Below the pieces are notes generated by a model, which saw nothing but the letters and a program-made list of their open reading frames with translations, was not told where the DNA came from and searched no databases. This document shows, one piece after another, positions 8,262 through 35,700 of a stretch of 64,000 nt of DNA (the first letter of the stretch is position 1; every line of letters begins with the position of its first letter). The stretch is from a virus. Where the stretch lies: IMG/VR virus record IMGVR_UViG_3300036760_000945, positions 18,852 through 82,851 of that record, one strand, 5' to 3'. The translations under genes were made by a program, and so were the position numbers.

Positions 8262-11200
8262 CTAGCTCCTCAGCTCCTTCGTGACCGCATCGAGGACAAA
8301 GGAAGAGAGTTTCTCGTTGCCAATATAGATGTTCACAATCTGTGGCGCACCGGCCTTCTTGCCGCCCATTGGAATATAGGATGAACCGCCAGCAATTGTT
8401 ACGCCGACAGGGCGCTGGAAAAGATTATGAATACGTTTCAGACTCTCCCATTCGCTGTGTGGAATTACACGGCCGCCGACGATGCCTTCAGTGCCCTGTT
8501 CGCCAACTTCGACTGCGCCACTAGCAAGACCTCGAAGAATACCACCTGCGGCTTTCATGCTTTCAAGGTTATGAGCCAATACTCCGCCAGCAAAATAGCT
8601 ATGTGTCTCGTCATCCGTTCCGAAGTTATAGGACGGTACCTGTTCTCCGTTCCAGGAAAGATCTGTTACAACAACGTCTTTTCCATCTTTGTCCAGTAGC
8701 GCATCTCCAAGTCGTAAAGTCTTGGCATGTGCCCACTCGCCATTAATAGACATTGGGTGTCCCGCTGTTACGCCAAGGTGCTTATTGATAGTAATATAGC
8801 CACAGTTGCTTTTAGCAGAGTGATGAAACACTTTATTGACCCTCGCATTTACCGGCTCGCGAGTCTTGATATTCATCGAGAGAACCATATCTCCAACCTG
8901 AACCTCTTCAATGGGTTTGGTCAAGCCGGCTACCATTGTTATCATTGTTCCTGCAATGAAGCATGGTGCATTTCCTTCACCTTCGCCATGCTCGGTTGTG
9001 ACTCCTGGCATCCGTAGAAGTTGATCAATCCACTTTTTGAGAATAGGTATAGAAGTGGACATGGCGGTTTGCCAATCCATTAGGGCATCGTCTGTCAATA
9101 GACTGAGTGCGCCCTTGGCATTATCGGCATAGATCTGGAACTTGACCATTGCGTCGTTCAGATCTTTTTGCTGTTTGGCATAGAAGGCAGTAATACCAGC
9201 CGACTCTTTCTCGAGCGCCATCTGCTGGATATACTGTGCGCGTTCGAGCTTGGTCTGCTCTTCCTGGAGTATCTTGTTCTGCTGGTAATACTCGATGGAC
9301 TTATCGAGTTGTTCCTGTTGCATCTTTAGATTCTCTTTGAACTGTTTGTTCTGAAGAGCAAAACGCTGATCTTCAAGTTTCCAGAGTTCCTTCTGCCTAT
9401 TCTTTTGTTTATCGATCTGCTCACCTTCAAGATCGTGCATAATTGTCTCGCGGCCCATTTGCCGTTCTGCAAGTTTGCGTTCACGCCCAGTCATGAAACG
9501 GATATTTTCGGCGTAGTCTTCCTGGCGCCAGCCCCACTGAAGTTCGCGTGTTTGGGTCTGATAGCCCCAGTCTTGCTGTGTCCAGCCGCGTTGCATTTGC
9601 GTACCGCGTTGATTGAGTGCCATGTTCTCCTGGAACTGCTGCGCGCCAAGGTTCATGCCTCTCTGCTGAAAACCGAATTGCCATCCCTGTTGTTGATAAC
9701 CAAGTGCGCGTTGTGCGTCCTGCAGACCCCAAGTACCGCCCTGGTACAACGGCCCAAACGGCTGCCCGGTCTGTGGATTGATTGTACCCGCATATTGTTG
9801 TATGCCAACGCCGGTCGTAAAGGCCAGATTCTGATTTACACGTTTCATCGCCAGGCCAGCAGAGGCCATTGCCTGATTGTACTGAGACTGGTTCTGCATG
9901 AACTGTAGTGCATACTGGCCACCAATATTGCCAATTGTTTCACCGCTGGCAAGTGTCATTGGCCCACCAGGAATTGCAATACCACCAGCCATGCCAGCAA
10001 TGAAGGGTGCAGCCAGGCCGGTAGAGGTTTGCCAGTTTCTACCCCAGATCTGTTGTGCAGTCTGGAGTCCAGTCTGGCCAACCTGTGCCAAACTACTCTG
10101 TCCCCAATTCAAACCTGTTGGCTGGTTGGTCCCCATACGTATATCGGTCAAGGCCATATTGTTAATACCCATAGTCTGGCCAGTGATCATGGGGAAGCGC
10201 TGGGCCATCAACTGTGGCGATATTCCGCCCGTTGCAGCAAGTGCAGCAACTGCAGTTGGTTGTGCATTATACAACTGGTTATAGAACCATTCCTGGCCTT
10301 TGGGCATTGCACCAGAAGTGAACTGTTGATATAACTGGTTGCCGAGTGCAGGACGGTTAAATTGATAGGCTTGCTGTTGTAACTGCGCACCAATACCAAT
10401 GCGATAATTGGCCTGAGCCTCCTGGGCACTCCAAGTCGCAGTCTGGCGAGCTGCTTCTTCTGGCAACATAGCGACAGCCTCACCACCAGATATATATTCT
10501 GTCTGAAGAGGTGCGGGAGTCCTAGTTAGACCTGCTGCGCGTTGTGCCATCCATGCAGAGTAACGCGCCTTATAAACATCTCCAGCGGGTTTATTGTAAA
10601 GAATACCATTGGCTATTTGGTTATCCAGATACTTTTTCATATCTGTGTCTGTTCGAAGTTGACTTGCCGTTGTGACATTTCCAGGAAGCCACGCTGCAGC
10701 TGCACCAAAACCACTCGTGTATTGTCCACCAAGTCCCAATAGTGCTTGTTGGTTTGCAGTTGGATAGTTTTTACTAATATAGTTGGCCAGAGCACCCTGA
10801 ACTGTAGTGGTTACCCCGGGAATAAGTGCAGTCCCTGCCGTTGTTTGTCCAAGAGCAGGCGGTCCCTGCAGGGTTCCATAAAGAGGAGCTGCCGCAAATG
10901 CACCTGCACCCATACCAGAGGCAGACAAAATACCTGCTGCCAGTTCACCTGGTTGCATACCTTGTTGATATTGTTCAGCAAAGCGCTGCCAATAACTCTG
11001 CGGAAGGTTTTGGTTTGAAACCAGAGTAAATGCTTTGGCAATTGCATCAGGAGCCAGATCTGTTCTTTGGCCCTGAGCGATCTGCATTGTTGTAGAAAGT
11101 GCTTTAACATATTGAGTTGTTCCAGGAAGAGTGCCAGCAAGTTGCCACATTTGTGCATTGGGCTGTCCTGACATCATCTGGCGTAGAACTGTCCATTTCG

Positions 11201-14200
11201 CTGTTTCTTTATCCTGATCGGTACCACCTAGGCCAGCAGCAATACCTGTCGTAGAAAAAACAGTCAGGAAATTCTGCAGGGAGGCATATGCCCCACCAGT
11301 AGCAGCAACCTTTGACATTTGGTAGGCCACGGTTTCGGGGGCTTGCATTTTTTGATAAGTTTGTGCAGCTATATTAAGTCCTGCAACGCCCGCAGCAAGC
11401 GCAATTGCACCGGGGCCCTTTGCAAAACTCATCATCCCCGTACCTTCACCTGCCCACTGGCCAAATTGTTGAGTAATAGCATAGGCACCAAGCCCAGCTA
11501 CTCCCGTAGAAGTAATGTCGGATAGTAATGGGTTTTGCGCTATTATCATCTTTCCAGCAGTTACTGGGTTGACCTGGGCACCATAAAGTGCAGTTATATT
11601 CTGTGCTGCACGTAATTGGTTATAGGGCACATAAGCAGCTCCACCTGCTTGCGAGGCAGCACCAGCAAAGGTATCTTGCATTGCCAACGCTTCTTGTTGA
11701 CCCTGTCCTACACCACCCGTTATCATCCCCGCAATACGGGCCATGTACATCATGCCCCAGCCCCCTAGCGCTCTCCTTAGAAAGGATCCTCTAAACAACT
11801 GTGGGGTACCGGTTATATCCTCCTGAAGTTCGCCCTCTTGCCTACCAAGACGACCCAATTCGCCTTCTGCTCTGCGTATCTTGCTGGGTAGACCAGGTTC
11901 TACTGCACCGGCTCTATATTGTTCACGATAACCAGCAAGTTCTGCTGTTACTGTTGCCCTTTGCTGCTGTACTTCAGCAAGTCTTATTTGCCGCTCAGAA
12001 TTCTCATACTGCTTGAGTTCGGCCTTGTTCATATTTTCAAGAGAACCGCCGGCCTTATCGAGTAAACCTTTCTGTCTCTCCATTAACTGGTTATATTTCT
12101 CGACAGACTCTATTGGCAACTGGATCAGCTCTTTGGCGCCCGCGCCACGTCCGCGGCCAGCACCGCCAGTAGTACCCAAGTCCTCACTTCTACCAAGAAT
12201 TGGGGAGCCAAACACACCCAGTTGCTGAAGTGCATCATAGGTCGCGCCGCCGGCTACAGCACCAGCCCGCAACATTTCATATTCTGCACCGGCACCCAGG
12301 CCCAGTTTCTCTGTAGCATATTTGAAAGCGCGTTGCACCTGTGGTGCATTTGCGCCAATGCCCTTAAGCAGTTTCTGCACAGGGGCAATAGCAGCGCCAA
12401 ACTGCTCAGGGGCATTCTCCAGGGCCCAGCCAATACGTTGGTACATCTCTCCTGCAGGTGCACCAAGTTGAGTTAAAACACCCTCAATGCCAGCCCGCAT
12501 AGGTTCAAGATATGGCCTGGCGCCCTGTAACCACGCTACAGTAGCTTGATAGTCACGCGAACTCATATAGGGAGGTTCTTGTAGTTCTCCAAAGGAACTC
12601 CATCCTCTGCCACCCCCACCGCCTCTACTTCCACCCGCGCCTCCACCCTGACCGCCACGCCAACCGCCGCCGCTCGGCGGTCTATTGCCGCCGCCGGCCA
12701 TCATTCGAAGATCGGCTTCTCTTTGTTGGGCCCGCGCCGATGGAATATCTTGCTCTCTGCGGAAGCGCTGATAGGCCTCAGCATCCATTTTCGTCTGCTC
12801 AGGCGTCTTTGTTGGATATTCAGTTGCCCTCTGTGGCGCACCTGTAACCGCAGTTGCCGCCTGGCGCTGGCGCTCAATCGCAGCCTCTATTTGCCGATTT
12901 AGCCCTTGGCTTTCTTCTACCTTGCCAGGATCAATTATATCGGTACCAGGAATAAATGTTGCAGTAAGTTTTGTTTTGAGAGAAGCAATTGTATCCTCTG
13001 CTACACCAAGAGGAATACCGGTGCCAGCAAGCATTGTTTCCCAGGGCGCTCGAGCGGCAGCAGGTAGAGTAGCCATGGCCGCTGTAATTTCATGTCCGCC
13101 AGGGATTTTGCCTGCCATAAGATTTGCAATTGTACCCGTGGCCTGCCACTGCTTATAGAGTTCAGGGAACTTCTCTTGGAACTTCGCTCCAAGTTGGAGA
13201 GCGCCAGCCTTTGTCGTCGCCATGCCGCCGAGAGCAGTCATGATAGGTAGTCCCATCATTTCGCCGTAGCCCTGTTTCTCTAGTTGTTGCCACAGGACTT
13301 CTTTTCTACCGGCAATTGGTACACCCTGGAGTTGCTTGAGCAAACCCTCATAGCCACTTGCAGGTGCAAACATACCCGCAAGCATCTCGCTTGCAATCGG
13401 GTAATACTCTTTGCCTTTCTCTACGATCGGACGTGTAGCAATATCGGCAATGCCATGTAGAAAGTTAGAAACCCCGCCTGCGGCAGCGCCCTCGGCACCT
13501 AATACATATTTGCTCTTGTAGCGTCCACCAGCACCCAACACGCCAGCCATTAGTTCGCCCTCGGGGGTAAACTTGGCACTACCAAGCAGAGAAGCAAAAG
13601 GTACGCCGCTCTTGCCTGTAAGCCACTTATCGAGACCTGTCTGGTAGGGCTGTATCAAGCTCTCTGATACATCTGCAATGGTTTTGGCAGAATAGCCAGC
13701 CATTTGCATTGCAGGATACATGGGATTGCGGATATTATAGGTCTGCCCCATAGTTGCCTGTGAATACACTGCCATTTGGCGGTGCACAGCCTGTGCCTCT
13801 TTCATACCGCCCCATTGTAGATCATTGCCCTTGCCAAGAGGATCAACGCCCTGAATAACATCCTTCATCGCATTGAAGGTCGAGGACGATCTCTGGTAAA
13901 TACCAACATCCTGGAAGCGTGCTTTTGCTATACCCGTGGCCTTTTCGGGGGTCAGGGCTGCATTTTCTTTCCAGAAATCCTCGGTTGCAAAAGTTTCTAG
14001 TTTGCCCTCTGGAGTTCTACGCAACATCTGAATTACCGTTGCGATATCCCTGTCCAGATCGCCCTGAGAGGCTTGCGTACCCGCGGCAAAACCAACAAAA
14101 GCGCCCCCTCTATTCTCGGGGTTTGCGAGTGCGGCAGCCGCGGCCTCAGAGCCAACGCGAGCCGCATATTCACCATAGCCAATTTCCCGCATGGCCAGAG

Positions 14201-17200
14201 AACTCTCCGCGCGCGAACCTACGGGAATACGGGTAAAGGTAGCTGCGAGTTTGCCAGATGTGGCAATAGTTTCATATTGCTGCCTGGCACCGGGCAGCTC
14301 GCTCTCCGCAAAACCAAGCCTGCGAAGCACCAGATCCCTTGTATCGGGAGCCATAAGCATTTCGTTTGTCTGTAATCCGGGCAGACTTGCATAACGCAAT
14401 GTTGCGCCACTCGGTACTTCCCTGGAGGCGATCTCTTTATAGGCCTCGCCTCGCTCAGAGAAGTTCTGTTTGAAGAGATTATATAGACCTGCAATACCAC
14501 CAAGGGCAGCAGTGCGAGAGCCGGCCTGCTCCGCTGCCACGGCAGCCCTAAGTGCCTTGAAATAAGTACGCCCACCACCGCCGATCTCGGTCCCAAGTGG
14601 TGCATACTGCAGTTCCTGCATTGCCCTGGGTGCCACAAGCGAAACACCTGTCCTTGGGAAATAAGGTACGCCAGCAGTCTCTCCGGCATCGCCAATAACA
14701 CCACGAAAAGCCTCAAGGCGCTCACGAGAAGGCATGCCTCGAGTGCCCTCTAGGACTGCCGAGGCCCGTTGCAGCAACGCGGGCGTCATCTCGATCGCGT
14801 TTTCTGGTCTATAGCCTTGCCCAGCCGCGACAGACTTGGTTTGTGCATAGAAGCCAAAGGCCTGTTTCCAGGCGCCCTGCATTCTTGTAGCGTCGCCGGG
14901 CACAGTATTCAGTAGGCCTAACCACTTTGACATCTCCGGCCATTTCTGCGATAGGCCAGCACCAAGTTCCATATTTACACGTGCGCGACCGGCATACTCG
15001 GGTACCATGTAGTTCATTGTTCTTGCATAGGGTACAGCACCTGCAGCAGTCTGTGTTAGAAGTGGATACTCGGCGCGGTTTCCCTCTACATCAGCCAAGA
15101 TGGAAGTTGCTATCTGACTAGGCGTACCACCCTCTGCAGAAGTAGAATATCTCTGTCTTGCAGCCGCCTCAAGTTGTGCCTCGGTAGCATTCTTGAATTC
15201 CGGCATAGTGCGCAGAACCTCTTTGGCCTGCATCGTCATGAAGTTGATCATGTCTGGTGAAGCACGATAAGAGAAGGAAGGATCTCGCACTAACCCAATC
15301 TCGTGTTCCCTTAGATGGCGAATATTCTCAGGAGACTCCGGCGTCACGCCCTTGAAGAAAACCGTATTGAAAATATCCGCAGCCGCCTCCATACCCGTAC
15401 CCGTGAAGGGCACATCGCTCTTTCGGGTCTGTCTTTGCCAGTATTGCCCAAGGCGTTCAAGATCTAACTGCATACCACCGGCGCCCTCGGGGAAATTCTT
15501 CCCAACCCAGCGAGACAACCTGGCTGCTTCTGGCGTACCAGTCTTACCTGCATATTCCTGGAAGATATTGAGGATCTGCGAGCGGGACTGCGCTGCCATG
15601 ATGCCCATAACGTCCATTATGCCGGCACCCTTGACCTCGCCATGTACGTCGGTCACTGGTAGGTTAAGACCGCCTTGCTGGACAGAAGCAGTTGTGCCGG
15701 CAGAGAAAGCACCGATTTTCTCCCCAAGTCCACGCGCCTTCGCGCCAACATCATAAGCCATGCCATAAGCAGAGAGGTTTACTGTACTGATGTTGGATCT
15801 GTTAATTATAAGATCGGGGTATTGTGCCTGGAGTTGTGCAACTAGAGGCTCGGTAGAAACTCCCTTCGCTACGGCCTTACCCGTTACCGGATCCCAGAAA
15901 GAGGGAATATTCAAGTAGGCGGCACGTACCTGGAAATTGCTAACAGAACCAGCCACGCCCATGAACTTACTGGGTTCGCCCACCTCGGTTGGGCGTCCAA
16001 TAATTTCCTCTTCACCCCTTGGTAGTCTGAACCTGCCAAGTGTCAAACCAGGACCGCCAGCAGGCACCGTTCTACCAACAAGTCCCTTCTGAATTGCCAG
16101 AGAGCCCGGCCCCTCACCAAGTAGGGTGCGTAAGTCCTCTACTGGAATATCGGGAGAGACATAGCGGCGTTGAAAACCAAAAGTCAGATTCTCGGGGCGT
16201 GCAGGATTCTCATAACTTACTGCTGCACCGGGGATGCCCGTGGGTGCAAACAGGGTTCTTCTAAGTTCACCAATGCGCCCCTCTTTCTCTCCGGGGTAGA
16301 GAATATTGGCTCTCGCAAGATATTGTTCTCCGCCCGGAGTAATAACCTCGGGCTTGATGGCCCTCAACATAGGCCGACCCGTAGAATAATCCATCACATA
16401 GGCATTGGCTTGCTGTGTGCCGAAGAAGAGAGAAGAGGATTTGAAGGTTTTCTCGGGCTCGCGTGGGCCGAGCATTTCCCTGGTCAGAACTGTTTGCTCG
16501 CCAGGCTGGCCCGCATAAGTACTTCTAACACCACCGGCACCACCAAAGGCCTGTGGCTCTAGCATCCCAGACTTGCCATACATGAGACCATATTTAGCCA
16601 GCTCGGTCCAAGTATATGGCTTGCCCTCTACGATTCTCCCTGAGAGAGAGGCAATCCTTGCCTCAATATCTTTCCCAACATTCCCAGGCACCCAGGGTGG
16701 TATATCTTCAGCCTTGCCAGTTGTACTCTCGAAAGCAAACTGAACACGCCCCTGCATTCTCTGTCTTTGTGCAGCGCCTTGTGGGTTCCAGACATCAAGA
16801 TATGCAGGGGGGATACCCAACATAGTATCGCCATAGGACAACAGTCTACTAAAGGCTTTCTCTGCTGTTTCCCCAGGCCGCTTTGTCCCAAATGCGCCAG
16901 AGACAGTCATTGCCAGGCGCTCCGCAGGAGAAAAGACCTGTGGTGTCTCAGCGTATTCTTCTGTCTTCGGATTTACGCGAAACTTGAAAAAGCCAGTTTC
17001 CACATAGGGTTGCTGGCCTGCTGTTTGCCTGCCGATAAGATAAGTCTGTCCTAGAGGCCCCCCATATCCTTCTGCAATATCCAAAGGCAGCGTTTCCCCA
17101 CTACCGCTCATTGTGATAAAGTAACGTGGATATTTCTCTACAAGCTGCCGCGAAATAGCATATTCGCCGCCCAGCATACTCCGTAATCTGGCAGTGATCG

Positions 17201-17240
17201 GATCGTTCTCTTGGCTGGAGAATGGAACTCTAAGTGGCAT
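8262..17240 (-). CDS. Tape measure protein with putative N-terminal two-barrel RNA polymerase and C-terminal Hint domain
   Basis: Follows tail chaperone pair; ~2990 aa; Ala/Gly/Gln-rich helical C-half; C-terminal AAGG..VGEQGTE..VIPH motif typical of TMPs; start set at ATG 17240 (AGGAG RBS) instead of 17276. Confidence 0.85.
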   Translation of the reverse strand: MPLRVPFSSQENDPITARLRSMLGGEYAISRQLVEKYPRYFITMSGSGETLPLDIAEGYGGPLGQTYLIGRQTAGQQPYVETGFFKFRVNPKTEEYAETPQVFSPAERLAMTVSGAFGTKRPGETAEKAFSRLLSYGDTMLGIPPAYLDVWNPQGAAQRQRMQGRVQFAFESTTGKAEDIPPWVPGNVGKDIEARIASLSGRIVEGKPYTWTELAKYGLMYGKSGMLEPQAFGGAGGVRSTYAGQPGEQTVLTREMLGPREPEKTFKSSSLFFGTQQANAYVMDYSTGRPMLRAIKPEVITPGGEQYLARANILYPGEKEGRIGELRRTLFAPTGIPGAAVSYENPARPENLTFGFQRRYVSPDIPVEDLRTLLGEGPGSLAIQKGLVGRTVPAGGPGLTLGRFRLPRGEEEIIGRPTEVGEPSKFMGVAGSVSNFQVRAAYLNIPSFWDPVTGKAVAKGVSTEPLVAQLQAQYPDLIINRSNISTVNLSAYGMAYDVGAKARGLGEKIGAFSAGTTASVQQGGLNLPVTDVHGEVKGAGIMDVMGIMAAQSRSQILNIFQEYAGKTGTPEAARLSRWVGKNFPEGAGGMQLDLERLGQYWQRQTRKSDVPFTGTGMEAAADIFNTVFFKGVTPESPENIRHLREHEIGLVRDPSFSYRASPDMINFMTMQAKEVLRTMPEFKNATEAQLEAAARQRYSTSAEGGTPSQIATSILADVEGNRAEYPLLTQTAAGAVPYARTMNYMVPEYAGRARVNMELGAGLSQKWPEMSKWLGLLNTVPGDATRMQGAWKQAFGFYAQTKSVAAGQGYRPENAIEMTPALLQRASAVLEGTRGMPSRERLEAFRGVIGDAGETAGVPYFPRTGVSLVAPRAMQELQYAPLGTEIGGGGRTYFKALRAAVAAEQAGSRTAALGGIAGLYNLFKQNFSERGEAYKEIASREVPSGATLRYASLPGLQTNEMLMAPDTRDLVLRRLGFAESELPGARQQYETIATSGKLAATFTRIPVGSRAESSLAMREIGYGEYAARVGSEAAAAALANPENRGGAFVGFAAGTQASQGDLDRDIATVIQMLRRTPEGKLETFATEDFWKENAALTPEKATGIAKARFQDVGIYQRSSSTFNAMKDVIQGVDPLGKGNDLQWGGMKEAQAVHRQMAVYSQATMGQTYNIRNPMYPAMQMAGYSAKTIADVSESLIQPYQTGLDKWLTGKSGVPFASLLGSAKFTPEGELMAGVLGAGGRYKSKYVLGAEGAAAGGVSNFLHGIADIATRPIVEKGKEYYPIASEMLAGMFAPASGYEGLLKQLQGVPIAGRKEVLWQQLEKQGYGEMMGLPIMTALGGMATTKAGALQLGAKFQEKFPELYKQWQATGTIANLMAGKIPGGHEITAAMATLPAAARAPWETMLAGTGIPLGVAEDTIASLKTKLTATFIPGTDIIDPGKVEESQGLNRQIEAAIERQRQAATAVTGAPQRATEYPTKTPEQTKMDAEAYQRFRREQDIPSARAQQREADLRMMAGGGNRPPSGGGWRGGQGGGAGGSRGGGGGRGWSSFGELQEPPYMSSRDYQATVAWLQGARPYLEPMRAGIEGVLTQLGAPAGEMYQRIGWALENAPEQFGAAIAPVQKLLKGIGANAPQVQRAFKYATEKLGLGAGAEYEMLRAGAVAGGATYDALQQLGVFGSPILGRSEDLGTTGGAGRGRGAGAKELIQLPIESVEKYNQLMERQKGLLDKAGGSLENMNKAELKQYENSERQIRLAEVQQQRATVTAELAGYREQYRAGAVEPGLPSKIRRAEGELGRLGRQEGELQEDITGTPQLFRGSFLRRALGGWGMMYMARIAGMITGGVGQGQQEALAMQDTFAGAASQAGGAAYVPYNQLRAAQNITALYGAQVNPVTAGKMIIAQNPLLSDITSTGVAGLGAYAITQQFGQWAGEGTGMMSFAKGPGAIALAAGVAGLNIAAQTYQKMQAPETVAYQMSKVAATGGAYASLQNFLTVFSTTGIAAGLGGTDQDKETAKWTVLRQMMSGQPNAQMWQLAGTLPGTTQYVKALSTTMQIAQGQRTDLAPDAIAKAFTLVSNQNLPQSYWQRFAEQYQQGMQPGELAAGILSASGMGAGAFAAAPLYGTLQGPPALGQTTAGTALIPGVTTTVQGALANYISKNYPTANQQALLGLGGQYTSGFGAAAAWLPGNVTTASQLRTDTDMKKYLDNQIANGILYNKPAGDVYKARYSAWMAQRAAGLTRTPAPLQTEYISGGEAVAMLPEEAARQTATWSAQEAQANYRIGIGAQLQQQAYQFNRPALGNQLYQQFTSGAMPKGQEWFYNQLYNAQPTAVAALAATGGISPQLMAQRFPMITGQTMGINNMALTDIRMGTNQPTGLNWGQSSLAQVGQTGLQTAQQIWGRNWQTSTGLAAPFIAGMAGGIAIPGGPMTLASGETIGNIGGQYALQFMQNQSQYNQAMASAGLAMKRVNQNLAFTTGVGIQQYAGTINPQTGQPFGPLYQGGTWGLQDAQRALGYQQQGWQFGFQQRGMNLGAQQFQENMALNQRGTQMQRGWTQQDWGYQTQTRELQWGWRQEDYAENIRFMTGRERKLAERQMGRETIMHDLEGEQIDKQKNRQKELWKLEDQRFALQNKQFKENLKMQQEQLDKSIEYYQQNKILQEEQTKLERAQYIQQMALEKESAGITAFYAKQQKDLNDAMVKFQIYADNAKGALSLLTDDALMDWQTAMSTSIPILKKWIDQLLRMPGVTTEHGEGEGNAPCFIAGTMITMVAGLTKPIEEVQVGDMVLSMNIKTREPVNARVNKVFHHSAKSNCGYITINKHLGVTAGHPMSINGEWAHAKTLRLGDALLDKDGKDVVVTDLSWNGEQVPSYNFGTDDETHSYFAGGVLAHNLESMKAAGGILRGLASGAVEVGEQGTEGIVGGRVIPHSEWESLKRIHNLFQRPVGVTIAGGSSYIPMGGKKAGAPQIVNIYIGNEKLSSFVLDAVTKELRS
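8568..8963 (-). other. Hint (intein-like, BIL-A/pretoxin type) domain, 132 aa, within TMP
   Basis: Block A CFIAGTMI, block B VTAGHP, blocks F/G SYNFGTD..HSYFAGGVLAHN; the next residue is Leu. Confidence 0.9.
14046..14237 (-). other. Putative RNAP catalytic barrel motifs (FTRIP ... GDLDRD)
   Basis: RxP at 14223-14231 and DxDxD at 14046-14060, in the order of beta' NRxP...NADFDGD. Confidence 0.65.
15717..15749 (-). other. Putative RNAP beta-like two-lysine motif (VGAKARGLGEK)
   Basis: Resembles GDKxAGRHGNKG of RNAP beta; lies N-terminal to the DxDxD motif. Confidence 0.55.
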
Positions 17241-17505
17241 TTGCAGAGGCTCCTGGTATACTTTCCATAATAGCAATTTGTTGTTCTATCACCGACCACT
17301 CCAAGAGCCAGATATGTGGTTGGTCGAGTACCCCACCGGCAACAAGTGGAAGGCCAGTAGATCTGCATCTTTCATACAAGGTCATAGCCTCAGGTTTTTC
17401 TGGGAAATCAACCTTGAGGCCTGCCTTCAGTTCATTGAGTAGACCATAATATTCTCTAATCTCGTCTCGTAACTTCTCCAATTTCCCCGCGACTAGGCTT
17501 CCCCC
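17230..17505 (-). CDS. Tail assembly chaperone, -1 frameshift extension (gpT-like)
   Basis: Open -1 frame overlapping the chaperone 3' end, between chaperone and TMP; GGVLDQP motif. Confidence 0.75.
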   Translation of the reverse strand, partial: GGSLVAGKLEKLRDEIREYYGLLNELKAGLKVDFPEKPEAMTLYERCRSTGLPLVAGGVLDQPHIWLLEWSVIEQQIAIMESIPGASANAT

Positions 17506-17912
17506 ATCGGCCCAGCCCACAGAGGATTCATCTCGAGGACTTTATCGTGGATCTCTTCGGCGACTATTGGAGGAAGCCCCGCCCAGCCTCTCTTGAAGGA
17601 GGCCGGATCTACCTTGCCGTCCTTGAAGAAGAAGGTCGGCTTCCCATTATCATTCTCGATATTGCAGCCCACCATTGTCAGCTCTACCTCTCTGCGATAG
17701 AGTTCCTCGGGGGAAAAGTGCTGAGATACAGTTAATTGGTCGCCATCGAAGACGCGGGTGAACTCCGACAGTAACGCATTGCGCACCTCACATTGGCCTT
17801 GAGTTGCCTGGCGGATACGGACAGTAGTATGATCATCCTTGACATCATATTCTTTGTCCGTCTTCTCGAGGATGAAGTCTTTCTCGATTGGTGCAGTTAG
17901 TTTTAGTGCCAT
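17493..17912 (-). CDS. Tail assembly chaperone (gpG-like)
   Basis: 139 aa between tail tube gene and TMP; AGGAG RBS. Confidence 0.8.
   Translation of the reverse strand: MALKLTAPIEKDFILEKTDKEYDVKDDHTTVRIRQATQGQCEVRNALLSEFTRVFDGDQLTVSQHFSPEELYRREVELTMVGCNIENDNGKPTFFFKDGKVDPASFKRGWAGLPPIVAEEIHDKVLEMNPLWAGPMGEA
17499..17505 (-). promoter_or_regulatory. Programmed -1 frameshift site G GGG GAA
   Basis: ATG GGG GAA GCC TAG; a -1 slip enters the downstream open frame. Confidence 0.75.
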
Positions 17913-17994: not shown

Positions 17995-19071
17995 TTAGGT
18001 CGGCCAGATGTATTCCGGGACCAGGTTGCGCAGCGTGAAGGTTGCATAGGCGATATCGGGATCAGTCTCAAGTGCTACACCAGCAAAGCGCAGCAGGATA
18101 GACTGGTTGCCAGCCAGGGTAAGGCCGCCAACCTGTGACATCATGACTTTGTTAGCAGCAACCACCAGTGAATAGGGTTCAATGTCCTCGGGTGTATTCA
18201 TCGGAGAGACGGCCTTGACCTCGAAGGATGTGGTATACGGCTTGCCGGACCACTCAGTGCCAACAGCACTACCGGTCAGAAGGGCAGCATAAAGATCGGG
18301 GTTGTTCCATTTGACGGTCATATCGTAGGCCAAGCGCCGCTGAACGATCGTCACATCCTCAAGGAATGGACTGCCATAGACACGCTCTTGACGAATATCA
18401 AGAGGCACATTCTGGAAACCGACGGTTGCGGCAACCACAGGCAGCTCGTCGCCGCCATCGCCAATCTTGAGCCAGCCACCAGTCTGGCAACCTACGGGAA
18501 TTGATTCCCAGGACTCGAACTCGTTTTCCCATGACCACTGGTCCGGTGCATGATCGAGCTCGAACTCGCGCCCGAGCACATCGACACGCATCGTCAGTGG
18601 CGCGTCGTTGGGTAGTACCAGTGAAGCACCCACGATCTTGCAATCCCTGAAGATCTGGCCCAGATCGGTGGCCGGATTAGCCTCCTTGGGCGGGATATGC
18701 TTACGGAAACTCATCCAGGGGACATAAGATGGCTCAGCGGCAAAACCGAAGATATGCTTGACGATGTTCTCTGAATAGTCGTAGTCGTCATCATCACTAT
18801 CAACAGCACCCATGAGACCATACAGCAACCAGCCAAGTGTACTTTCAAGGCGCGGCTGGATCGTAAACCCGCCAGCAACCACGGGTCCGGCCTTATAGGG
18901 GAAAGTTGGCACGGGCACGCCGCCAATCTCCGGGACGCCTTCGCGAACTTCATCCATCACGTCCAGGTCGACCATGGTAGCCCGATGTTTGTACCAGTAG
19001 GGCGGACTGAAATCGCCCATGCCGGCTTGGGGGGCAAAGCCAATTATTGCCGAAGCAGCGGTAATTCCCAT
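17995..19071 (-). CDS. Major tail tube protein
   Basis: 358 aa upstream of chaperones; LGWLLYGLMG..KHIF, FRDCKI pattern; AAGGAG RBS. Confidence 0.8.
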   Translation of the reverse strand: MGITAASAIIGFAPQAGMGDFSPPYWYKHRATMVDLDVMDEVREGVPEIGGVPVPTFPYKAGPVVAGGFTIQPRLESTLGWLLYGLMGAVDSDDDDYDYSENIVKHIFGFAAEPSYVPWMSFRKHIPPKEANPATDLGQIFRDCKIVGASLVLPNDAPLTMRVDVLGREFELDHAPDQWSWENEFESWESIPVGCQTGGWLKIGDGGDELPVVAATVGFQNVPLDIRQERVYGSPFLEDVTIVQRRLAYDMTVKWNNPDLYAALLTGSAVGTEWSGKPYTTSFEVKAVSPMNTPEDIEPYSLVVAANKVMMSQVGGLTLAGNQSILLRFAGVALETDPDIAYATFTLRNLVPEYIWPT

Positions 19072-24896: not shown

Positions 24897-27563
24897 CTAT
24901 CGAGGCCACGTCGTTGACGAACCTGCCTCGTCTCGCCTGCGGGTACGTACTTCATTTCTATCATGTCGGCGCCCCGAGACAAGTCCAGGGCTATCATCGC
25001 CAGTCTCGCTGCTGTTTTCCTCTCCAAAATCGCCATAATAAGCCCGGATCGCAAACGCACCCATTGCCAACGTTGCAACAACGTCTTGCGCCAGCTTGCC
25101 ACCACTTGCTTTATCCGCGATAGGATCATAGTTTTTTAGTTGGCTTCCTATGCCAGTACAGATCGAAGGCCATGAGAGCATCTTGCTTTCGAGCGATAGT
25201 CTCAGTGCAACAAGGTAACTATACCTTTTTGCGCCCGAAAAGTCAAGACCGGTTATTGAAATGACCGACTTCTTCTTGCCGTAGATATAATCCGTGCTGA
25301 TCAGCTCCGCCGTACTCTTCTGGGGCCCGGTATTGTCCACGGCAGCCAATATGGGTCCATAAGTATCGATCCACTCGATAAAACGGCTCACAAAAGGCAT
25401 GATCGAGCCTGCGCCATTACCCCACCAGAAAGCAACTATTGGACTATGCACTGGCGCCTCTGTGACATCAAAAACGATGATACAGGGAGCATTTCGGGAG
25501 GGTGCCACGCCTGTGCCTGGGTCGCCAATGATGAAATATTGGCGTCCTGCCTTACGTGGCTGTCTGAGATAGAACGCACCCATGTGCGGCAAGGTCTCCA
25601 TCTCATAACCAGCCTCGCCTTTGTCGATGGCATTCAGGACTATCTCTGATTGCCCGGCATCCAAGCAGGGATCAACAGTCGAGGCCGGGAAGTAAGAACC
25701 CTTACCCTGTGGGCGGTCCCCGGTCATGAAACGGTTGTGCAGTTCTTTGGGGATCATCTTCAGCGCAAAGCGGATCTGTTTATCGGTCGTATTCTTGTTA
25801 TACTTGGTGTCAATGTTGAATACCAGCCCGTCCTCTTTGTCCGCTGCTGCCATATCATAGAGTTGCCACAGCTCGGGGTTTTCCCACGGGTTAGAGATGA
25901 GCGAAAGCCGGCCTAGATAGGGGCGGTTCTCGGCAGTGCCGCCAGTAAGGCGGGTGACTAGGTTTGTCACCACCACCCCCAAATCGTCTATTTTCCCGGC
26001 TTCTTCGATATTGATCCAGTCGCCGCGGTAGGAAAAGATGTTTTCTGCAGTCCCCTCCTCACCCAATGTCTGAAATTCCAGAAGCGAGGAGAATTTCTTG
26101 GTGCCAATATAATACTCGAGGGCAACCTGCGGCCAGGGGCGCTTTGGCGCAGAGACAATGAGTTTTTCAAAGGGTGTGCCCTCGACCTGCTCCATTAGCG
26201 CTCGATACATAAGCATTGACTGCCAGGCACTGGGTGCAACATTCATAAACTTGAATAATTGCGTCAGCGCCGCATGATAGGCGGCACCCATCACCACGCC
26301 GACGGTTTTGCCAGAATTATGAGAGACAACACCCTCCATAACATAATTTTCGTAGCCGGGAACATGGATATCATATAGATCTATTTCTCCAACATCCTCT
26401 ATTTTAGTAATAATTGGTGTATAATAGTCCCACTTATTATTCTTGGGAGAGAAACATGGATCAGGAAGAACTTCAAATACTTGTTGATCAATTTGGGACA
26501 CAGACGGCTGTAGCAAAGCGCCTCGGGATAAGACAGCAAGATCTCTGGTATCTGGTAAAGAAAAATCACTGGCATATTCACTATGATATAACTCGCCGCA
26601 GAAAGAAGGGCTCGAAACTTGATCCTTATTCTCTAATACTGAAACATCTGGGAGATCTTGGTTGGAGTTGCCAGAGAATTGTTGATGCCCTCGAACTAAA
26701 GACCGATCCTGAGCACGTTCGTCGCTGGTTGGTTGTCCATTGTCCCCAAAAACGGAACAGGAAGCACGGTGGTGTGGGGGAAAGAAGTCCTGCCTTTGTC
26801 GATGGTGACTATTATAATAGGAAGGATAATTCTTATAACTTTGTACCCGCGCCAGAGGGGTATATGGGTCAGAAGAAATCAAATGGTTGGGTTGCAGAAC
26901 ATCGTCTTGTCGTTGAAAAGGAACTTGGCCGACTTCTTCATCCGGGCGAGGTTGTACATCATATTGATGGGGATGGAAAGAATAATCTCCCTGGAAACCT
27001 GATGACTTTCCCGACAAATCGCGAACATCTACTGTGGCACTGGGAGCAAATGCAGGCAAAATATGAGGAGCGATTAGAACATCTCCGAGCCGTAGATCGC
27101 GAGTACGTACAAACCCTTGGCTGGCAGTCATAAAACGATGATCCAGAGAGACGGTAATTGTATTACCATTAGAGAAGGAAAGTCTTTTTGCCCTGGCCTT
27201 TCCCTTGTAGAACGGCAGTGTTGCCTGGACCATTGCCCATCCTGATATGCCGCGGGCTAAAACAACTGGCGCCCTCTTATTATCAAGAAGCCACCTAAAT
27301 GATACATATCTCCCAAGTTCTACATCATAGAGATGACTATCAATGTCGGCGCAACTGATCCCACAGATGGCAACAATAAACGATTGCGTTGCCATACACA
27401 TTGTTTCTTGCCATTTACCCTCTGACTCGAAGTTCCAGTCCAGCATCCATCCGTGTTCTTGGTTTGGTTTTCTGAACCAGTAATCACAGAAAATATTGGG
27501 ATTGGCCGCCCCGGCCCTAAGAATTTCAATCTCGGCAGCAGTCATTGCGTGAATCGAGGGCAT
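24897..27563 (-). CDS. terL: Terminase large subunit (intein-containing)
   Basis: Walker A CGIS^SGKT split by intein; Walker B WINIEEAG; LISNP; nuclease motif IIGDPG; ~542 aa after splicing. Confidence 0.92.
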   Translation of the reverse strand: MPSIHAMTAAEIEILRAGAANPNIFCDYWFRKPNQEHGWMLDWNFESEGKWQETMCMATQSFIVAICGISCADIDSHLYDVELGRYVSFRWLLDNKRAPVVLARGISGWAMVQATLPFYKGKARAKRLSFSNGNTITVSLDHRFMTASQGFVRTRDLRLGDVLIAPHILPAFAPSATVDVRDLSGKSSGFQGDYSFHPHQYDVQPRPDEEVGQVPFQRQDDVLQPNHLISSDPYTPLARVQSYKNYPSYYNSHHRQRQDFFPPHHRASCSVFGDNGQPTSDERAQDRSLVRGHQQFSGNSNQDLPDVSVLENKDQVSSPSFCGELYHSEYASDFSLPDTRDLAVLSRGALLQPSVSQIDQQVFEVLPDPCFSPKNNKWDYYTPIITKIEDVGEIDLYDIHVPGYENYVMEGVVSHNSGKTVGVVMGAAYHAALTQLFKFMNVAPSAWQSMLMYRALMEQVEGTPFEKLIVSAPKRPWPQVALEYYIGTKKFSSLLEFQTLGEEGTAENIFSYRGDWINIEEAGKIDDLGVVVTNLVTRLTGGTAENRPYLGRLSLISNPWENPELWQLYDMAAADKEDGLVFNIDTKYNKNTTDKQIRFALKMIPKELHNRFMTGDRPQGKGSYFPASTVDPCLDAGQSEIVLNAIDKGEAGYEMETLPHMGAFYLRQPRKAGRQYFIIGDPGTGVAPSRNAPCIIVFDVTEAPVHSPIVAFWWGNGAGSIMPFVSRFIEWIDTYGPILAAVDNTGPQKSTAELISTDYIYGKKKSVISITGLDFSGAKRYSYLVALRLSLESKMLSWPSICTGIGSQLKNYDPIADKASGGKLAQDVVATLAMGAFAIRAYYGDFGEENSSETGDDSPGLVSGRRHDRNEVRTRRRDEAGSSTTWPR
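26316..27353 (-). mobile_element. Intein (346 aa) in TerL Walker A
   Basis: Starts with Cys (CADIDSHL); block B TVSLDHRF; block F LYDIHVPGYENY; ends SHN followed by +1 Ser. Confidence 0.92.
26456..27133 (+). CDS. HTH + HNH homing endonuclease encoded antisense within the intein
   Basis: 225 aa; GGGAGAG RBS; HTH TQTAVAKRLGI; HNH motif EHRLVVEKELGRLLHPGEVVHHIDGDGKNNLPGNL; GTGTATAAT -10 element at 26417-26425. Confidence 0.9.
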   Translation: MDQEELQILVDQFGTQTAVAKRLGIRQQDLWYLVKKNHWHIHYDITRRRKKGSKLDPYSLILKHLGDLGWSCQRIVDALELKTDPEHVRRWLVVHCPQKRNRKHGGVGERSPAFVDGDYYNRKDNSYNFVPAPEGYMGQKKSNGWVAEHRLVVEKELGRLLHPGEVVHHIDGDGKNNLPGNLMTFPTNREHLLWHWEQMQAKYEERLEHLRAVDREYVQTLGWQS

Positions 27564-31436: not shown

Positions 31437-33458
31437 TTATCTAATTCGTATAGCACTCCACAAACGCTCGACTTGATTGAAAGAGGCCCAATTGCCGGTA
31501 GGTATTACTTCTTCATCTACAACCCTGCAGACACCAGGATATTTAGGCAACTCGTGATCGTGAAAAGCTATATAACCGCCAATCGGCACAAATTTATTCC
31601 AGGCAAGCCAATCGGCGTGCACGTCCTCATATTTGTGACTGCCATCGATAAACAATAGATTAATGGGCTTGCCGCGCTTGGCGGCGGCCCTTAGGCTGGT
31701 CGTCATGTGTGGATGTATAAAGGACGGGAAACTGCCAAAGATCGAGATAATCTGTTCTTTGAAGATCTTTGGGGTTTCGGGCAAATGATAACGTAATGAA
31801 CCGGTACGCCCCATGGTCCAAATATCGATAGTATGCAACACTGCAGTAGTGTTCTCCGCAATCACCAATCCCATCCCCAAATAGCACGTGGACATACCCC
31901 GATAGGGACCTATCTCGACAATCGCACCGTCCTTGGGAATTTGGGTTGCCAGGTATGTCAAATACTCACCCTCCATTGGACTGATCCTGCCGTCTAGCTG
32001 GGCCAGCTTCTTCTTTTTGTCAATTAGGTCTGGCGTAAACACCACCACCGGTTCATTGCGCGCTATCTTTCTCTGCATATTCACGATCGTATCGGGCACG
32101 ACCTCTTGCACGCGCGCAAGTAGTAAATCCATGTCGCCGTGCGCCCCAGTGGCATGAAATTCGCCGCGGATGGCCTTGATATGCTTGAGTGGGACTAAGT
32201 CTTCGAGTATCTCGTATTCTGCGCCCTCGCAATCTATTAAGAGTAAAGAAATGGGTCTTTTGGTGCCCGTTACGGTGCTCAAGATTTTAGACAATGTGAT
32301 TGAGGGTACTTCTGGATCCCCGCCGGCGCCATAGATATGATGAGCACCACTATTCTTGCCCATGCTCATCCTTATTTTACGCCCATCTTTGGTAACAGCT
32401 AGATGATGAACCTTGACGAGATCAGTCAGTTTATTCTGCTGGATATTCTTGATAAGCCTCCCATAATTGAAAGGTGACGCCTCAAAGACATAGACACGAC
32501 AGCCATACTTCTTTGCCAGGGTCATACTGACTTCGCCAACGTGTCCGCCAATCTCTATCACGATATCTTTGGGGCCAAGTCCCCAGGTATCGGTACGATA
32601 GTCCGTTTGTATCTCCTTTAGTATAACCTTCTCCTCCCAACCCGGGTCCGCAAATACAAGGCCCAATGGATTAAGTGGATCGGTCACTGCCCGCTTTCCT
32701 TTCATTTCCACCAATTTTGGTGATGGATAACCGTCCCTTGGTATTGGATGCAAATCCCTGGCTAGTCCCCACATGTGGTAGACGAGGGTGTTCTCGTCGG
32801 GACTATTGTTGTTCCAGTCATTAGTAAGTCTCAACACCTTGACATCAGGGCAATTCTTCATTGCCCGAAGAAACGCCATTTCTTCCTGCCAGTTAGGTAT
32901 ACGTTTCCATTGTCTGTACCATTCATCGAAGAGTGTCGCAAGGCGCTCGTTCTTGTGGAAGAAAATGACTCCTGAATTGATATATGGGTGTTTATCTGGC
33001 GGATATCCGGTAAGGAACTTGCTAGTATGGTCTCTTTCCTTCCTCGGCGCATTCCAGTCCGGCTTTTTATTGTCTGGCTTGAACAAGTCCTCCAACATCC
33101 ACCGACATCCCTTGGATATGCACATATCATATTCCTTGAGATAGTCAAACCCAGGCATTATATCCCCCCATACCTCGGTGTCTGCATCGAGATAAAGATT
33201 GTACTCGAATGGAGTATATTTGTACAAAAACGGCTTTACGTTGCCGGCCCAAAATCTAAGTCGTCCAGGCACCGTTTCTGGCCCCCAGGGATTATTCCCT
33301 TCCCATTGAATAAAAGTTGTTCCAGGTACTTTGTGTGTCCCTATAGAAATAACAGGAAGATCTATCTTCTGCGCCCTAACCGACTTAAGACTCTCGATGG
33401 CAGCAAGTACCGATACAGGACCAAAGGTCATATATATTATTCCGAGATTCTCGCTCAT
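31437..33458 (-). CDS. Tri-domain GT-A (GT8-like) glycosyltransferase + FkbM methyltransferase + class I methyltransferase
   Basis: LYLDADT/NSGVIFF; IEIGGHVG..IDCEGAEY; VEIGPYRGMS..IDGSHKYE..IAFHD. Confidence 0.85.
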   Translation of the reverse strand: MSENLGIIYMTFGPVSVLAAIESLKSVRAQKIDLPVISIGTHKVPGTTFIQWEGNNPWGPETVPGRLRFWAGNVKPFLYKYTPFEYNLYLDADTEVWGDIMPGFDYLKEYDMCISKGCRWMLEDLFKPDNKKPDWNAPRKERDHTSKFLTGYPPDKHPYINSGVIFFHKNERLATLFDEWYRQWKRIPNWQEEMAFLRAMKNCPDVKVLRLTNDWNNNSPDENTLVYHMWGLARDLHPIPRDGYPSPKLVEMKGKRAVTDPLNPLGLVFADPGWEEKVILKEIQTDYRTDTWGLGPKDIVIEIGGHVGEVSMTLAKKYGCRVYVFEASPFNYGRLIKNIQQNKLTDLVKVHHLAVTKDGRKIRMSMGKNSGAHHIYGAGGDPEVPSITLSKILSTVTGTKRPISLLLIDCEGAEYEILEDLVPLKHIKAIRGEFHATGAHGDMDLLLARVQEVVPDTIVNMQRKIARNEPVVVFTPDLIDKKKKLAQLDGRISPMEGEYLTYLATQIPKDGAIVEIGPYRGMSTCYLGMGLVIAENTTAVLHTIDIWTMGRTGSLRYHLPETPKIFKEQIISIFGSFPSFIHPHMTTSLRAAAKRGKPINLLFIDGSHKYEDVHADWLAWNKFVPIGGYIAFHDHELPKYPGVCRVVDEEVIPTGNWASFNQVERLWSAIRIR

Positions 33459-34051
33459 TTTTCACTCTCCGTTACTTTTCTCGAAGGTATTACTACTTGG
33501 TGTTGCACTGTCTTGAGATCGGGTTTCATGCGTTCAATGACCGACTTATAATTACCATGTCCGGCCATTAGTGTCCCCGATTCTCCGGCCTCGGGATCAA
33601 ATGTTCGCATATTTCCAACAAGCGAATCACAGCACGCAAAGATTATTTTGGTACATCCCATTACCTTAATAATTGCAATACCTACTCGAACACTCATTTC
33701 TCCCGCCGAAAGACCAAAATCATTGTGTACATCAATGAAAATTCTTCGCTTGTGCTTCGATAGACAAAACCTAGAATACTCAGCCAAAATCAGGGTTATG
33801 TCCTCAGAGGGATATGCCATTGGGGACTTGCATTCGTGATCCTGTATTCCGCGCAACTTGCAACCCTCTTTTTGCAATGAGTATATCGGATTGGGCAACC
33901 CAAGTTCTTGAACAACGAGAATTGCCTGATTCAATGTAATTACAGGACCAGGGCCAAAATAAGACGCATCAAGATACCATAAACTAGGTCCCTTGCCAAC
34001 CAAGTAAGCGGTACCATCGGGATATAAGTTTCGCAGTTCTTCGATCGTCAT
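33455..34051 (-). CDS. Maf/DUF115-like (sialyltransferase-like fold) protein
   Basis: LVGKGPSL, ITLN, MGCTKIIFACCD; GGAGG RBS. Confidence 0.65.
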   Translation of the reverse strand: MTIEELRNLYPDGTAYLVGKGPSLWYLDASYFGPGPVITLNQAILVVQELGLPNPIYSLQKEGCKLRGIQDHECKSPMAYPSEDITLILAEYSRFCLSKHKRRIFIDVHNDFGLSAGEMSVRVGIAIIKVMGCTKIIFACCDSLVGNMRTFDPEAGESGTLMAGHGNYKSVIERMKPDLKTVQHQVVIPSRKVTESEK

Positions 34052-34053
34052 AA

Positions 34054-34683
34054 TTATTCTTTGCCTCCTATAATATAGGGCGGTCTCTGCAGTATCCAGA
34101 CAAACTCGGCATATATACTTGGGCCAACAATGGACTTTACTATCCTGAAGCCGGCATTGACGATCCGTTGTTCCCACGATTCTCGATATAGATGCCATTC
34201 TACTTGTCGGTTGCCTTGATTGATACGCCGAAATCCCTCAATCTTCTCGCTCGATTTATAGGCAATACAGTTAGGGACTTCTACATACAAGATATTCCCA
34301 ACAAATGCGTGCAACCTTTCGAACATCGTGTCGTGATCCTCGATATGTTCAAGAACTCCGAGAGCTACAACAACATCAAACTTCCGGGGAGTGGCGTCCT
34401 CTATCGAAGAACACACAAAAGTGGCTTTTGGCACACGTCTTTTGGCGAGTTCTATTGCAACAGGAGATAGATCTAGGCCCCAGCATTCGGTGCTGGGCCA
34501 GCGCTCTGAAAACACCTCAACCGTGTGTCCATTGCCACAACCAATATCTAGGAATGTTTTGGGGGGACTACCAAGATATTCATTGATTGTCCTGAATGCA
34601 AATAGATCACGTGGTAGATCTGCCCAAAGATTGGGGTTTTTGGTGTAATACGCATCGTATTCTTCTATGGCCGTCTTGTCCAT
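34054..34683 (-). CDS. Class I SAM-dependent methyltransferase
   Basis: LDIGCGNG; FDVVVALGVLEHI; YVEVPN. Confidence 0.9.
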   Translation of the reverse strand: MDKTAIEEYDAYYTKNPNLWADLPRDLFAFRTINEYLGSPPKTFLDIGCGNGHTVEVFSERWPSTECWGLDLSPVAIELAKRRVPKATFVCSSIEDATPRKFDVVVALGVLEHIEDHDTMFERLHAFVGNILYVEVPNCIAYKSSEKIEGFRRINQGNRQVEWHLYRESWEQRIVNAGFRIVKSIVGPSIYAEFVWILQRPPYIIGGKE

Positions 34684-35402: not shown

Positions 35403-35700
35403 TTGATTTCTCCAAGTCGGAAACTGATTTGCCGCAACTTCTACAATGGCCGCTCGCGGGAAATGGATAGCCACAATCACATAACCCGTAGTCTTGGGCC
35501 AACTCGTTGACAATTCGCCGGATCTCGTCCTTATTCGAGGCCTCTGCCTCCGAGATGCCGGTGTACGTCTCCAGATCGACTACTTTCTTGCACACCGGGC
35601 ATCTCCAGGTGCGAAATCCACACGTTGGAGCATAGGGGCAATTATCATCTATAAATCCACAACTTGGACACTCGACAATTATAATATAGCGATCTCCCAT
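35395..35700 (-). CDS. Small multi-CxxC zinc-binding protein
   Basis: CPSC, CPVC, CDC, CRSC; GGAGG RBS. Confidence 0.65.
   Translation of the reverse strand: MGDRYIIIVECPSCGFIDDNCPYAPTCGFRTWRCPVCKKVVDLETYTGISEAEASNKDEIRRIVNELAQDYGLCDCGYPFPASGHCRSCGKSVSDLEKSSA

Follow-up and report, generated by a model that had tools for sequence, protein, structure and literature searches.

A tape measure gene with a probable two-barrel RNA polymerase-like module at its N-terminus

What does the N-terminal half of a 3000-residue phage tape measure protein do? The question is raised by a 64,000-nucleotide stretch of viral DNA (bases 18852-82851 of the 82,851-bp IMG/VR virus record IMGVR_UViG_3300036760_000945; hereafter the window), in which a single open frame on the minus strand, 8262..17276, specifies 3004 residues when counted from a TTG codon. 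The ATG at 17240 is the likely start, giving 2992 residues, because AGGAG stands 9 nucleotides upstream of it and because a homologue with 87% identity, P0003, opens with the same MPLRVPF. Residues are numbered here as in the protein counted from TTG (P0001), numbers counted from the ATG being smaller by 12, and every feature of the gene lies on the minus strand. The reading we favour, with a probability of about 0.7, is that the gene encodes a siphovirus tape measure protein whose N-terminal ~1400-1500 residues are a divergent single-chain two-barrel RNA polymerase. Structure prediction would place this domain in the same superfamily as the cellular β/β' subunits, QDE-1, gp66 of crAss-like phages and gp96/gp64 of phage P23-45.

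An initial annotation of this DNA had proposed an injected polymerase from three short motifs and their order, VGAKARGLGEK, FTRIP and DLDRD, all of which are indeed encoded, at the positions given below. The precedent that it invoked also holds. In P23-45 the N-terminal 1200 residues of the 5002-residue tape measure protein gp96 are an active RNA polymerase, which is present in virions within the full-length protein and transcribes the pre-early genes at the genome end that enters first; the same phage encodes a paralogue, the non-virion polymerase gp64 (Chaban et al. 2024, PMC10770324). The gene described here very likely represents a second family of virion RNA polymerases fused to tape measure proteins, new and unrelated in sequence to that of P23-45. 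As a finding it is a variant of a kind described recently, to which it is unrelated in sequence, and is not categorically new.

The predicted barrels and the elements downstream

With residues 301-1500 as query, a HMMER search of 1.84 billion representatives (one per 50% cluster of ~15 billion proteins) found 15 distant relatives, with 25-33% identity, which together with the query make up a family of 16 proteins. All 15 are metagenomic, from clusters of 1-3 members, and nearly all are 2.7-3.5 thousand residues long, so that the fusion is the norm among them. When a 5.8-billion-protein set was searched with a profile, the protein itself and the 87% relative were among the matches listed.

Mean column identity in the family alignment is 22%, and 8 of the 1200 aligned columns are invariant. 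Three of these eight are the aspartates of a GDxDxD motif, Asp1073, Asp1075 and Asp1077 (DLDRD, 14046-14060, residues 1073-1077, within QGDLDRDIATV, residues 1071-1081). The motif occupies the homologous position in 16 of 16 members, an invariance that the initial annotation had named as a check, while its middle residues vary freely (DLDRD, DFDYD, DWDKD, DFDAD and others). About 0.3 copies of a lone DxDxD are expected by chance in 3000 residues and its presence alone could thus be fortuitous; its conservation in the alignment is beyond chance. Upstream lies FTRIP (14223-14237, residues 1014-1018), in which Arg1016 is kept in 15 of the 16 proteins and Pro1018 in all of them. R-x-P followed some 55 residues on by G-D-x-D-x-D is the signature of a β'-type catalytic barrel. 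The positions of the N-terminal half that are invariant or nearly so are Lys549, Pro824, Arg1016, Pro1018, Gly1072, Asp1073, Asp1075, Asp1077, Asp1216, Gly1224 and Gly1240. A longer conserved block upstream of the catalytic barrel, K947...S-R...G957-x-x-(G/L)-R-Y...L...E..L-P-P..R..L-R-x-M-G-F, parallels GKRVDYSGRSVI...GLP of β'.

An AlphaFold2 model of residues 301-1500, made with the 16-sequence alignment, has a mean pLDDT (predicted local distance difference test score) of 66.7 and a predicted template modelling score of 0.56, with block means of 78-91 over residues 952-1095. The two-barrel RNA polymerase-like catalytic module would extend over approximately residues 450-1400 (13077..15929), and its best Foldseek and VIA-align matches are RNA polymerases. 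Within it, residues 952-1095 (13992..14423) form the candidate catalytic double-psi β-barrel (DPBB-A), which carries G957xxLRY...LP, FTRIP with Arg1016 and Pro1018, and GDLDRD with the three aspartates. Locally the model shows a strand (AFVG), a short helix, GDLDRD and a further strand (DIATVIQ), and another strand ends in Arg1016, a context that matches NADFDGD and NRAPTLH in β'. The GR...LP and R-x-P motifs lie on predicted strands upstream of the Asp triad, in the β' order.

Comparison of the model with known structures points in one direction. The best 50 Foldseek matches in the PDB are all RNA polymerase β'-type chains, the split β' of AR9/phiKZ, or QDE-1, with E = 5e-4 to 1e-2. An unbiased search independent of Foldseek, over 48,161 chain representatives, gave two-barrel RNA polymerases only at ranks 1-14; these are led by QDE-1 (score 9.3), Mycobacterium tuberculosis β' (8.5), the plastid enzyme, Pol I and maize RDR2 (8.2), and also include the vaccinia, Pol II, AR9 (8.0), archaeal, phiKZ (7.4), African swine fever virus and Pol III enzymes. 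Generic double-psi barrels appear among ranks 15-22, namely the Cdc48 N-domain (6.6) and a designed DPBB (6.3), 84 of 86 residues of which superpose on residues 956-1084 with a root-mean-square deviation of 2.3; the same ranks hold P74-26 gp62 (6.5) and P23-45 gp96 (6.0). The RNA polymerase matches span 200-390 residues and take in clamp-like and post-barrel helices. Among the predicted viral structures of BFVD, the long best matches include giant crAss-like phage proteins, together with viral RNA polymerases (LEF-9, pithovirus and poxvirus Rpo147).

A double-psi barrel carrying a metal-binding DxDxD loop is thus predicted at residues 952-1095, and we regard homology of the domain with the two-barrel polymerases as highly probable. 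Ahead of this barrel lies a mostly helical connector, residues 581-951 (14424..15536), which has a variable insert at residues 709-750 and conserved NxRNLxxYGxG, ExxGxxxxNxE, FPxxG and LQYxPxGxExGG motifs; its last ~135 residues align structurally with the N-terminal clamp portion of β'.

The BFVD search also matched the model to two uncharacterised proteins, A0A075BUT7 of Microcystis phage MaMV-DC and A0A172Q021 of Acinetobacter phage vB_AbaM_ME3, and to a 'minor tail protein', A0A8S5SD80 of Siphoviridae sp. ctnpt50 (E from 3e-8 to 5e-6). As judged from the model, these three proteins may hide similar unannotated polymerase domains.

Is there a second barrel? The superfamily is defined by two, the second of which supplies basic residues (PMC7824862). 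The initial annotation had expected both, and the Asp-bearing one is predicted, with two-barrel RNA polymerases as its best matches, whereas the Lys-bearing one is a candidate, a fold search with a construct that truncated it having given no double-psi match. The candidate for the latter, DPBB-B at residues 489-580 (15537..15812), would consist of a strand, a basic loop, two strands, GEVKG and a helix. Its basic loop is VGAKARGLGEK (15717-15749, residues 510-520), which contains Lys513, Arg515 and Lys520, and GEVKG (15627-15641) contains Lys549. Strands are predicted at residues 499-507, 521-525, 531-534 and 537-547, with a low-confidence loop at 509-521 and helices after Lys549. The lysines of the annotated motif prove to be well kept: position 513 is Lys or Arg in essentially all members and Lys520 is nearly invariant, and Lys549 is present in 14 of 14. 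Conservation within the whole domain is highest in the block starting at residues 529-575.

In the β subunit the order is GDK-x-AGRHGNKG, strand, strand, PSRMN and helix, and the order and spacing of the candidate unit resemble this arrangement. The GE-x-K-G of the family is in turn similar to the K-G motif at the opening of Lys-barrel strand 4, which reads AGLKG in gp96, AWKG in gp64 and SAKG in QDE-1 and also occurs in β and PolD (PMC10770324 Suppl. Fig. 8). Two structural alignments begin at residues 521-522, facing the first Lys-barrel residues of gp96 (480) and QDE-1 (680). An alternative location, residues 660-770, holds the least conserved stretch of the domain (residues 709-750) and has no conserved basic residue, which argues against a second barrel there. 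On the strength of the conserved Lys/Arg513, Lys520 and Lys549 and of the predicted order of strands and helix, the original placement of the Lys barrel is likely.

Beyond the catalytic barrel, 13623..13757 encodes ATMGQTYNIRN (residues 1174-1184), which is bridge-helix-like, and the trigger-loop-like PYQTGLD with Asp1216, as judged by motif comparison (PMC10770324 Suppl. Fig. 9). Across the family the former is conserved as (A/G)-M-G-Q/x-x-Y-N-x-R; the latter, Y-Q-x-x-L-D1216 with Gly1224, lies ~21 residues past the helix that follows the MGQ motif, and Asp1216 is invariant. In a published structure-based alignment A-G-Q is found in the bridge helix of both gp96 and gp64, and h-(V/T)-D-x-x-K/R is common to the trigger loops of four enzymes, gp96, gp64, QDE-1 and gp66; both P23-45 enzymes have Gln four residues before the trigger-loop Asp (PMC10770324). 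Structural alignments of our model extend to QDE-1 residue ~1143-1156, beyond the QDE-1 bridge helix and trigger loop. The resemblance of the two family motifs to a bridge helix and trigger loop is suggestive only.

Function and its alternatives

If the domain is a polymerase, how would it work? By analogy with P23-45 gp96, the protein would be assembled in the lumen of the tail, where its C-terminal half would set tail length. At infection it would be expelled ahead of the DNA, and the N-terminal polymerase would reach the cytoplasm beside the first-entering DNA end and could transcribe the first phage genes without need for the host polymerase, the flexible Gly-rich linker freeing the enzyme from the channel-forming half. 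Asp1073, Asp1075 and Asp1077 would hold the catalytic Mg2+, and Lys/Arg513, Lys520 and Lys549 of the upstream barrel would contact the nucleoside triphosphate and the RNA 3' end. Host polymerase would probably take over after the first transcripts. We infer that the template is DNA and that the module is catalytic, carried in the virion and injected; that it is an active virion transcriptase seems to us reasonably probable.

A relative with the same fused gene (G001; 88,723 bp, rated 100% complete) allows a whole genome to be considered. Its large open reading frames encode a portal, a collagen-like fibre and methylases. A query with the catalytic barrel matches its tape measure gene alone, and no other open reading frame of at least 250 residues contains a DxDxD. 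The lineage therefore seems to be without a gp64-like partner, although a very divergent or small paralogue is possible, and either the host enzyme or this polymerase itself would read its later genes.

Several results weigh against the favoured reading. Pfam and PHROGs searches with the protein and all family members gave no polymerase match in the N-terminal half, and phmmer and profile searches of the PDB returned nothing for this half, the gp96 structure 8h2n included. When the family profile was aligned by hhalign with gp96 residues 1-1300 the probability was 0.3%, and with Escherichia coli β' and β there was no match. The fourth position of the DxDxD motif differs from the usual Gly. As to the Lys barrel, most QDE-1 and RDR2 alignments start at residue ~677, suggesting a different placement, and a separate model of residues 470-955 matched only helical bundles and no double-psi barrel, the construct having truncated the N-terminal strands of the candidate. 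A repeat search found no repeated promoter motif specific to the early region, where σ70-like sites are mildly enriched (32, against 22.4 +/- 4.6), and host transcription therefore clearly plays a part. Other searches were also negative: tblastn with two family members gave no match in 50,697 phage records, and Pfam RNA_pol_Rpb2_6 was not found in the record.

These points bear differently on the alternatives. An unlikely one is that the domain is of RNA polymerase descent and has lost the activity, serving instead as a structural or DNA-binding 'pilot' for the leading DNA end or as a tail plug. The second barrel is a candidate only, the middle residues of the DxDxD are unusual, and the complete relative genome shows neither a dedicated polymerase promoter set nor a partner polymerase, all of which would suit such a relic; but the retention of the three Asp, R-x-P, Lys549 and Asp1216 at 22% mean column identity is the pattern of selection on a catalytic site, not on a scaffold. 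Somewhat less likely again is an active two-barrel enzyme with another job, whether primase-like, DNA-synthesising like PolD, or RNA-templated like QDE-1, in place of a DNA-dependent transcriptase. Such a role would agree with the best structural matches, which are the RNA-dependent polymerases QDE-1 and RDR2, with the lack of a recognisable DNA polymerase among the large open reading frames of the relative genome, and with DEDDh-exonuclease-like motifs at the N-terminus of one family member, P0013. Against this, PolD is absent from the best 50 matches of the wide structure search, QDE-1 also uses DNA templates and some of the matched PDB entries contain them, and the sole characterised tape measure fusion is a transcriptase.

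Could the barrel have nothing to do with polymerisation? Double-psi barrel enzymes that cut cell walls often occur in tape measure proteins, and one of the MltA, RlpA or 3D-domain type would use its Asp in peptidoglycan cleavage. We consider this improbable: the RNA polymerase matches cover 200-390 residues, reaching beyond the ~90-residue barrel and outranking every generic double-psi barrel, R-x-P...G-D-x-D-x-D and GR...LP are signatures of the β'-type barrel, and neither a lytic transglycosylase among the best 50 structure matches nor any Pfam match for the N-terminal half was found. The least probable explanation is a chance resemblance of motifs in an unrelated large virion protein, with a misleading model. 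Divergent as the sequence is, the best 14 of 48,161 unbiased comparisons and the best 50 Foldseek matches all belong to one superfamily, and the invariant residues coincide exactly with its catalytic signature. We conclude that a divergent two-barrel RNA polymerase is the best description of the N-terminal half.

The gene, its Hint domain and its genome

The whole gene (8262..17240) comprises the polymerase-like domain, a Gly-rich linker, a tape measure half, a Hint domain and a C-terminal piece. Residues 13-449 (15930..17240), ahead of the module, are conserved across the family and β-rich in the model. The linker, residues 1528-1559 (12600..12695), has 18 Gly in 30 residues and separates the polymerase-like half from the tape measure half, residues 1560-2771 (8964..12599); the latter is Ala/Gly/Gln-rich, with a conserved hydrophobic segment of GGFGLMYM type and, at its end, a coiled-coil-like region rich in Q/E/K. 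The protein matches none of the curated tape measure families of Pfam or PHROG, and its assignment is based on synteny and size together with a composition that is rich in Ala/Gly/Gln and coiled-coil-like.

The synteny is that of a siphovirus. On the same strand follow, in order, the terminase, an SPP1-type portal, a 478-residue probable capsid gene, an adaptor, the tail tube gene, a G/GT-like pair and the tape measure gene, and after the last a 149-residue open reading frame and then a 1150-residue (distal) tail protein. The tail tube protein (17995..19071) is matched by Pfam Phage_tube_2 (E=2e-5) and PHROG 290. The G/GT-like pair (17230..17912), directly upstream of the tape measure gene, is a 139-residue open reading frame whose end is overlapped by a 96-residue open reading frame in the -1 frame; the overlap contains ATGGGGGAAGCC, and the pair resembles the tail chaperone genes G and GT with their programmed frameshift. 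The fused gene is the longest of the tail genes and lies between the tail tube and G/GT-like genes and those for distal tail proteins, which is where a siphovirus canonically has its tape measure gene.

The Hint domain (8568..8963; CFIAGT...VLAHN) is the sole Pfam match in the whole protein, with PT-HINT at residues 2778-2902 (E=1e-12; 48.9 bits against a cut-off of 27.7) within a domain at residues 2771-2905. It has the N-terminal Cys1 and the C-terminal His-Asn of the Hint signature; the residue that follows is Leu, in place of the Cys, Ser or Thr that protein splicing needs as +1 nucleophile, making classical splicing unlikely. From its sequence the domain is likely to be a self-cleaving rather than a splicing element, and it may cleave off the last 101 residues (8265..8567), a C-terminus that is conserved even in family members lacking Hint. 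The architecture put forward in the initial annotation, polymerase, tape measure and Hint, stands as far as the Hint domain itself is real; as a family architecture it does not, since Hint is found in only ~5/13 full-length clusters, its flanks being contiguous in members without it. It is a variable add-on, outside any fixed family architecture.

The homologue P0013 varies at the other end, where ~170 extra residues (within its residues 1-190) precede the polymerase-like module. This extension has three DEDDh exonuclease-like motifs (YFDLETNG, FNGSTFD and AHKFGD); its Pfam match is weak (PF10108, E=0.077) and a PDB search gave none. If the exonuclease-like region is real, a second nucleic-acid enzyme is fused to the same protein.

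A palindrome recurs in both genomes. CCAA[C/G]TTGG is present in 10 copies in the 82.9-kb record, nine of them as TCCAA[C/G]TTGGA, where <0.2 would be expected by chance; eight copies fall in the window (4172, 13189, 22163, 44557, 44889, 49707, 51658 and 59267) and two before it. The 88.7-kb G001 (L008-L012) has 17 copies of CCAATTGG, of which 13-15 take the form TTCCAATTGGAA, again with <0.2 expected. The two genomes have the same half-site, with spacings that differ by one base. Both coding and intergenic DNA contain copies, some directly before a ribosome-binding site and ATG, and in each genome one lies inside the tape measure gene. The palindrome may be bound by a regulator or, as a hairpin, act as a signal to the phage polymerase.

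The genome is unusually rich in selfish elements: one intein (Pfam Intein_splicing, E=5e-12) lies in the large terminase gene (24897-27563) and another, a LAGLIDADG intein, in a DUF5131 (gp37/gp68-type) gene beyond the window (record C1:10778-12544), and GIY-YIG and several HNH genes are also present. A cluster of methyltransferase and glycosyltransferase-like genes (31437-35513) lies between the packaging and the early genes and includes a 673-residue protein with FkbM and Methyltransf_24 domains. The phage is uncultured, and no relative of its portal protein was found among isolated phages. The source of the stretch may be a sediment metagenome run that contains all of it, other runs containing small shares; there is no RNA run among the sequencing runs listed as containing it.

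Comparison with known polymerases

Until now, a single small group of Thermus phages has provided the known fusions of a virion RNA polymerase to a tape measure protein. Another such family, from mesophilic sediment metagenomes, would show that the tail-delivered transcriptase arose or persisted more widely. It would also be a deeply divergent addition to the tree of two-barrel polymerases, with a bearing on where the eukaryotic RNA-silencing polymerases came from. Did it arise independently? The idea of a second origin, of an enzyme structurally nearer to QDE-1 and the crAss-like proteins than to gp96 and the sole recognisable polymerase of a ~89-kb genome, is one we hold tentatively, at slightly less than even odds. 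If it is true, an enzyme of ~1500 residues must pass through the tail tube or unfold within it and then start the infection alone, and tail-delivered transcription is a recurrent strategy of long-tailed phages and no peculiarity of Thermus phages. A further question posed by such a family would be how an enzyme module of ~150 kDa is stored in, and passes, a tail channel of ~4 nm. With so few residues invariant, the compact set of 16 sequences can guide mutagenesis and the search for other hidden polymerases.

How does the protein compare with its closest known counterpart? With gp96 of P23-45 (and its equivalents in P74-26, G20c and TSP4; PDB 8h2n) it would share a polymerase module at the N-terminus of a tape measure protein encoded in the tail gene module, though with no detectable sequence or profile similarity. 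The module predicted here is larger, with DxDxD at residue ~1073 compared with 779 in gp96. Some 400 residues separate the candidate Lys loop from the catalytic barrel, and part of this connector aligns with the β' clamp region; in gp96 the connector is short and disordered and the shape flat and clamp-less. In place of the DFDGD of gp96 there is DxD[R/K/x]D. The metallopeptidase domain of gp96 was not found here, whereas the C-terminal Hint domain is present. The gp96 phages infect a hot-spring Thermus host, in contrast to the sediment metagenome from which the present stretch appears to come.

The Hint domain, for its part, is like the bacterial intein-like and pretoxin Hint domains in scoring above the PT-HINT threshold and in having Cys1 and a terminal His-Asn; it differs in lying inside a tape measure protein, in being followed by Leu and in occurring in only some family members. 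Of the other two-barrel enzymes, QDE-1 and RDR2 are cellular enzymes of eukaryotes, and crAss-like gp66 is packaged in the capsid of podovirus-like phages; none has sequence similarity to the domain described here, which is fused to a tail protein. Compared with cellular β' and with the split β' of AR9/phiKZ, to which hhalign gave no match, the polymerase-like domain is a single chain, and the zinc motifs and sigma-binding elements of cellular β' are not recognised in it.

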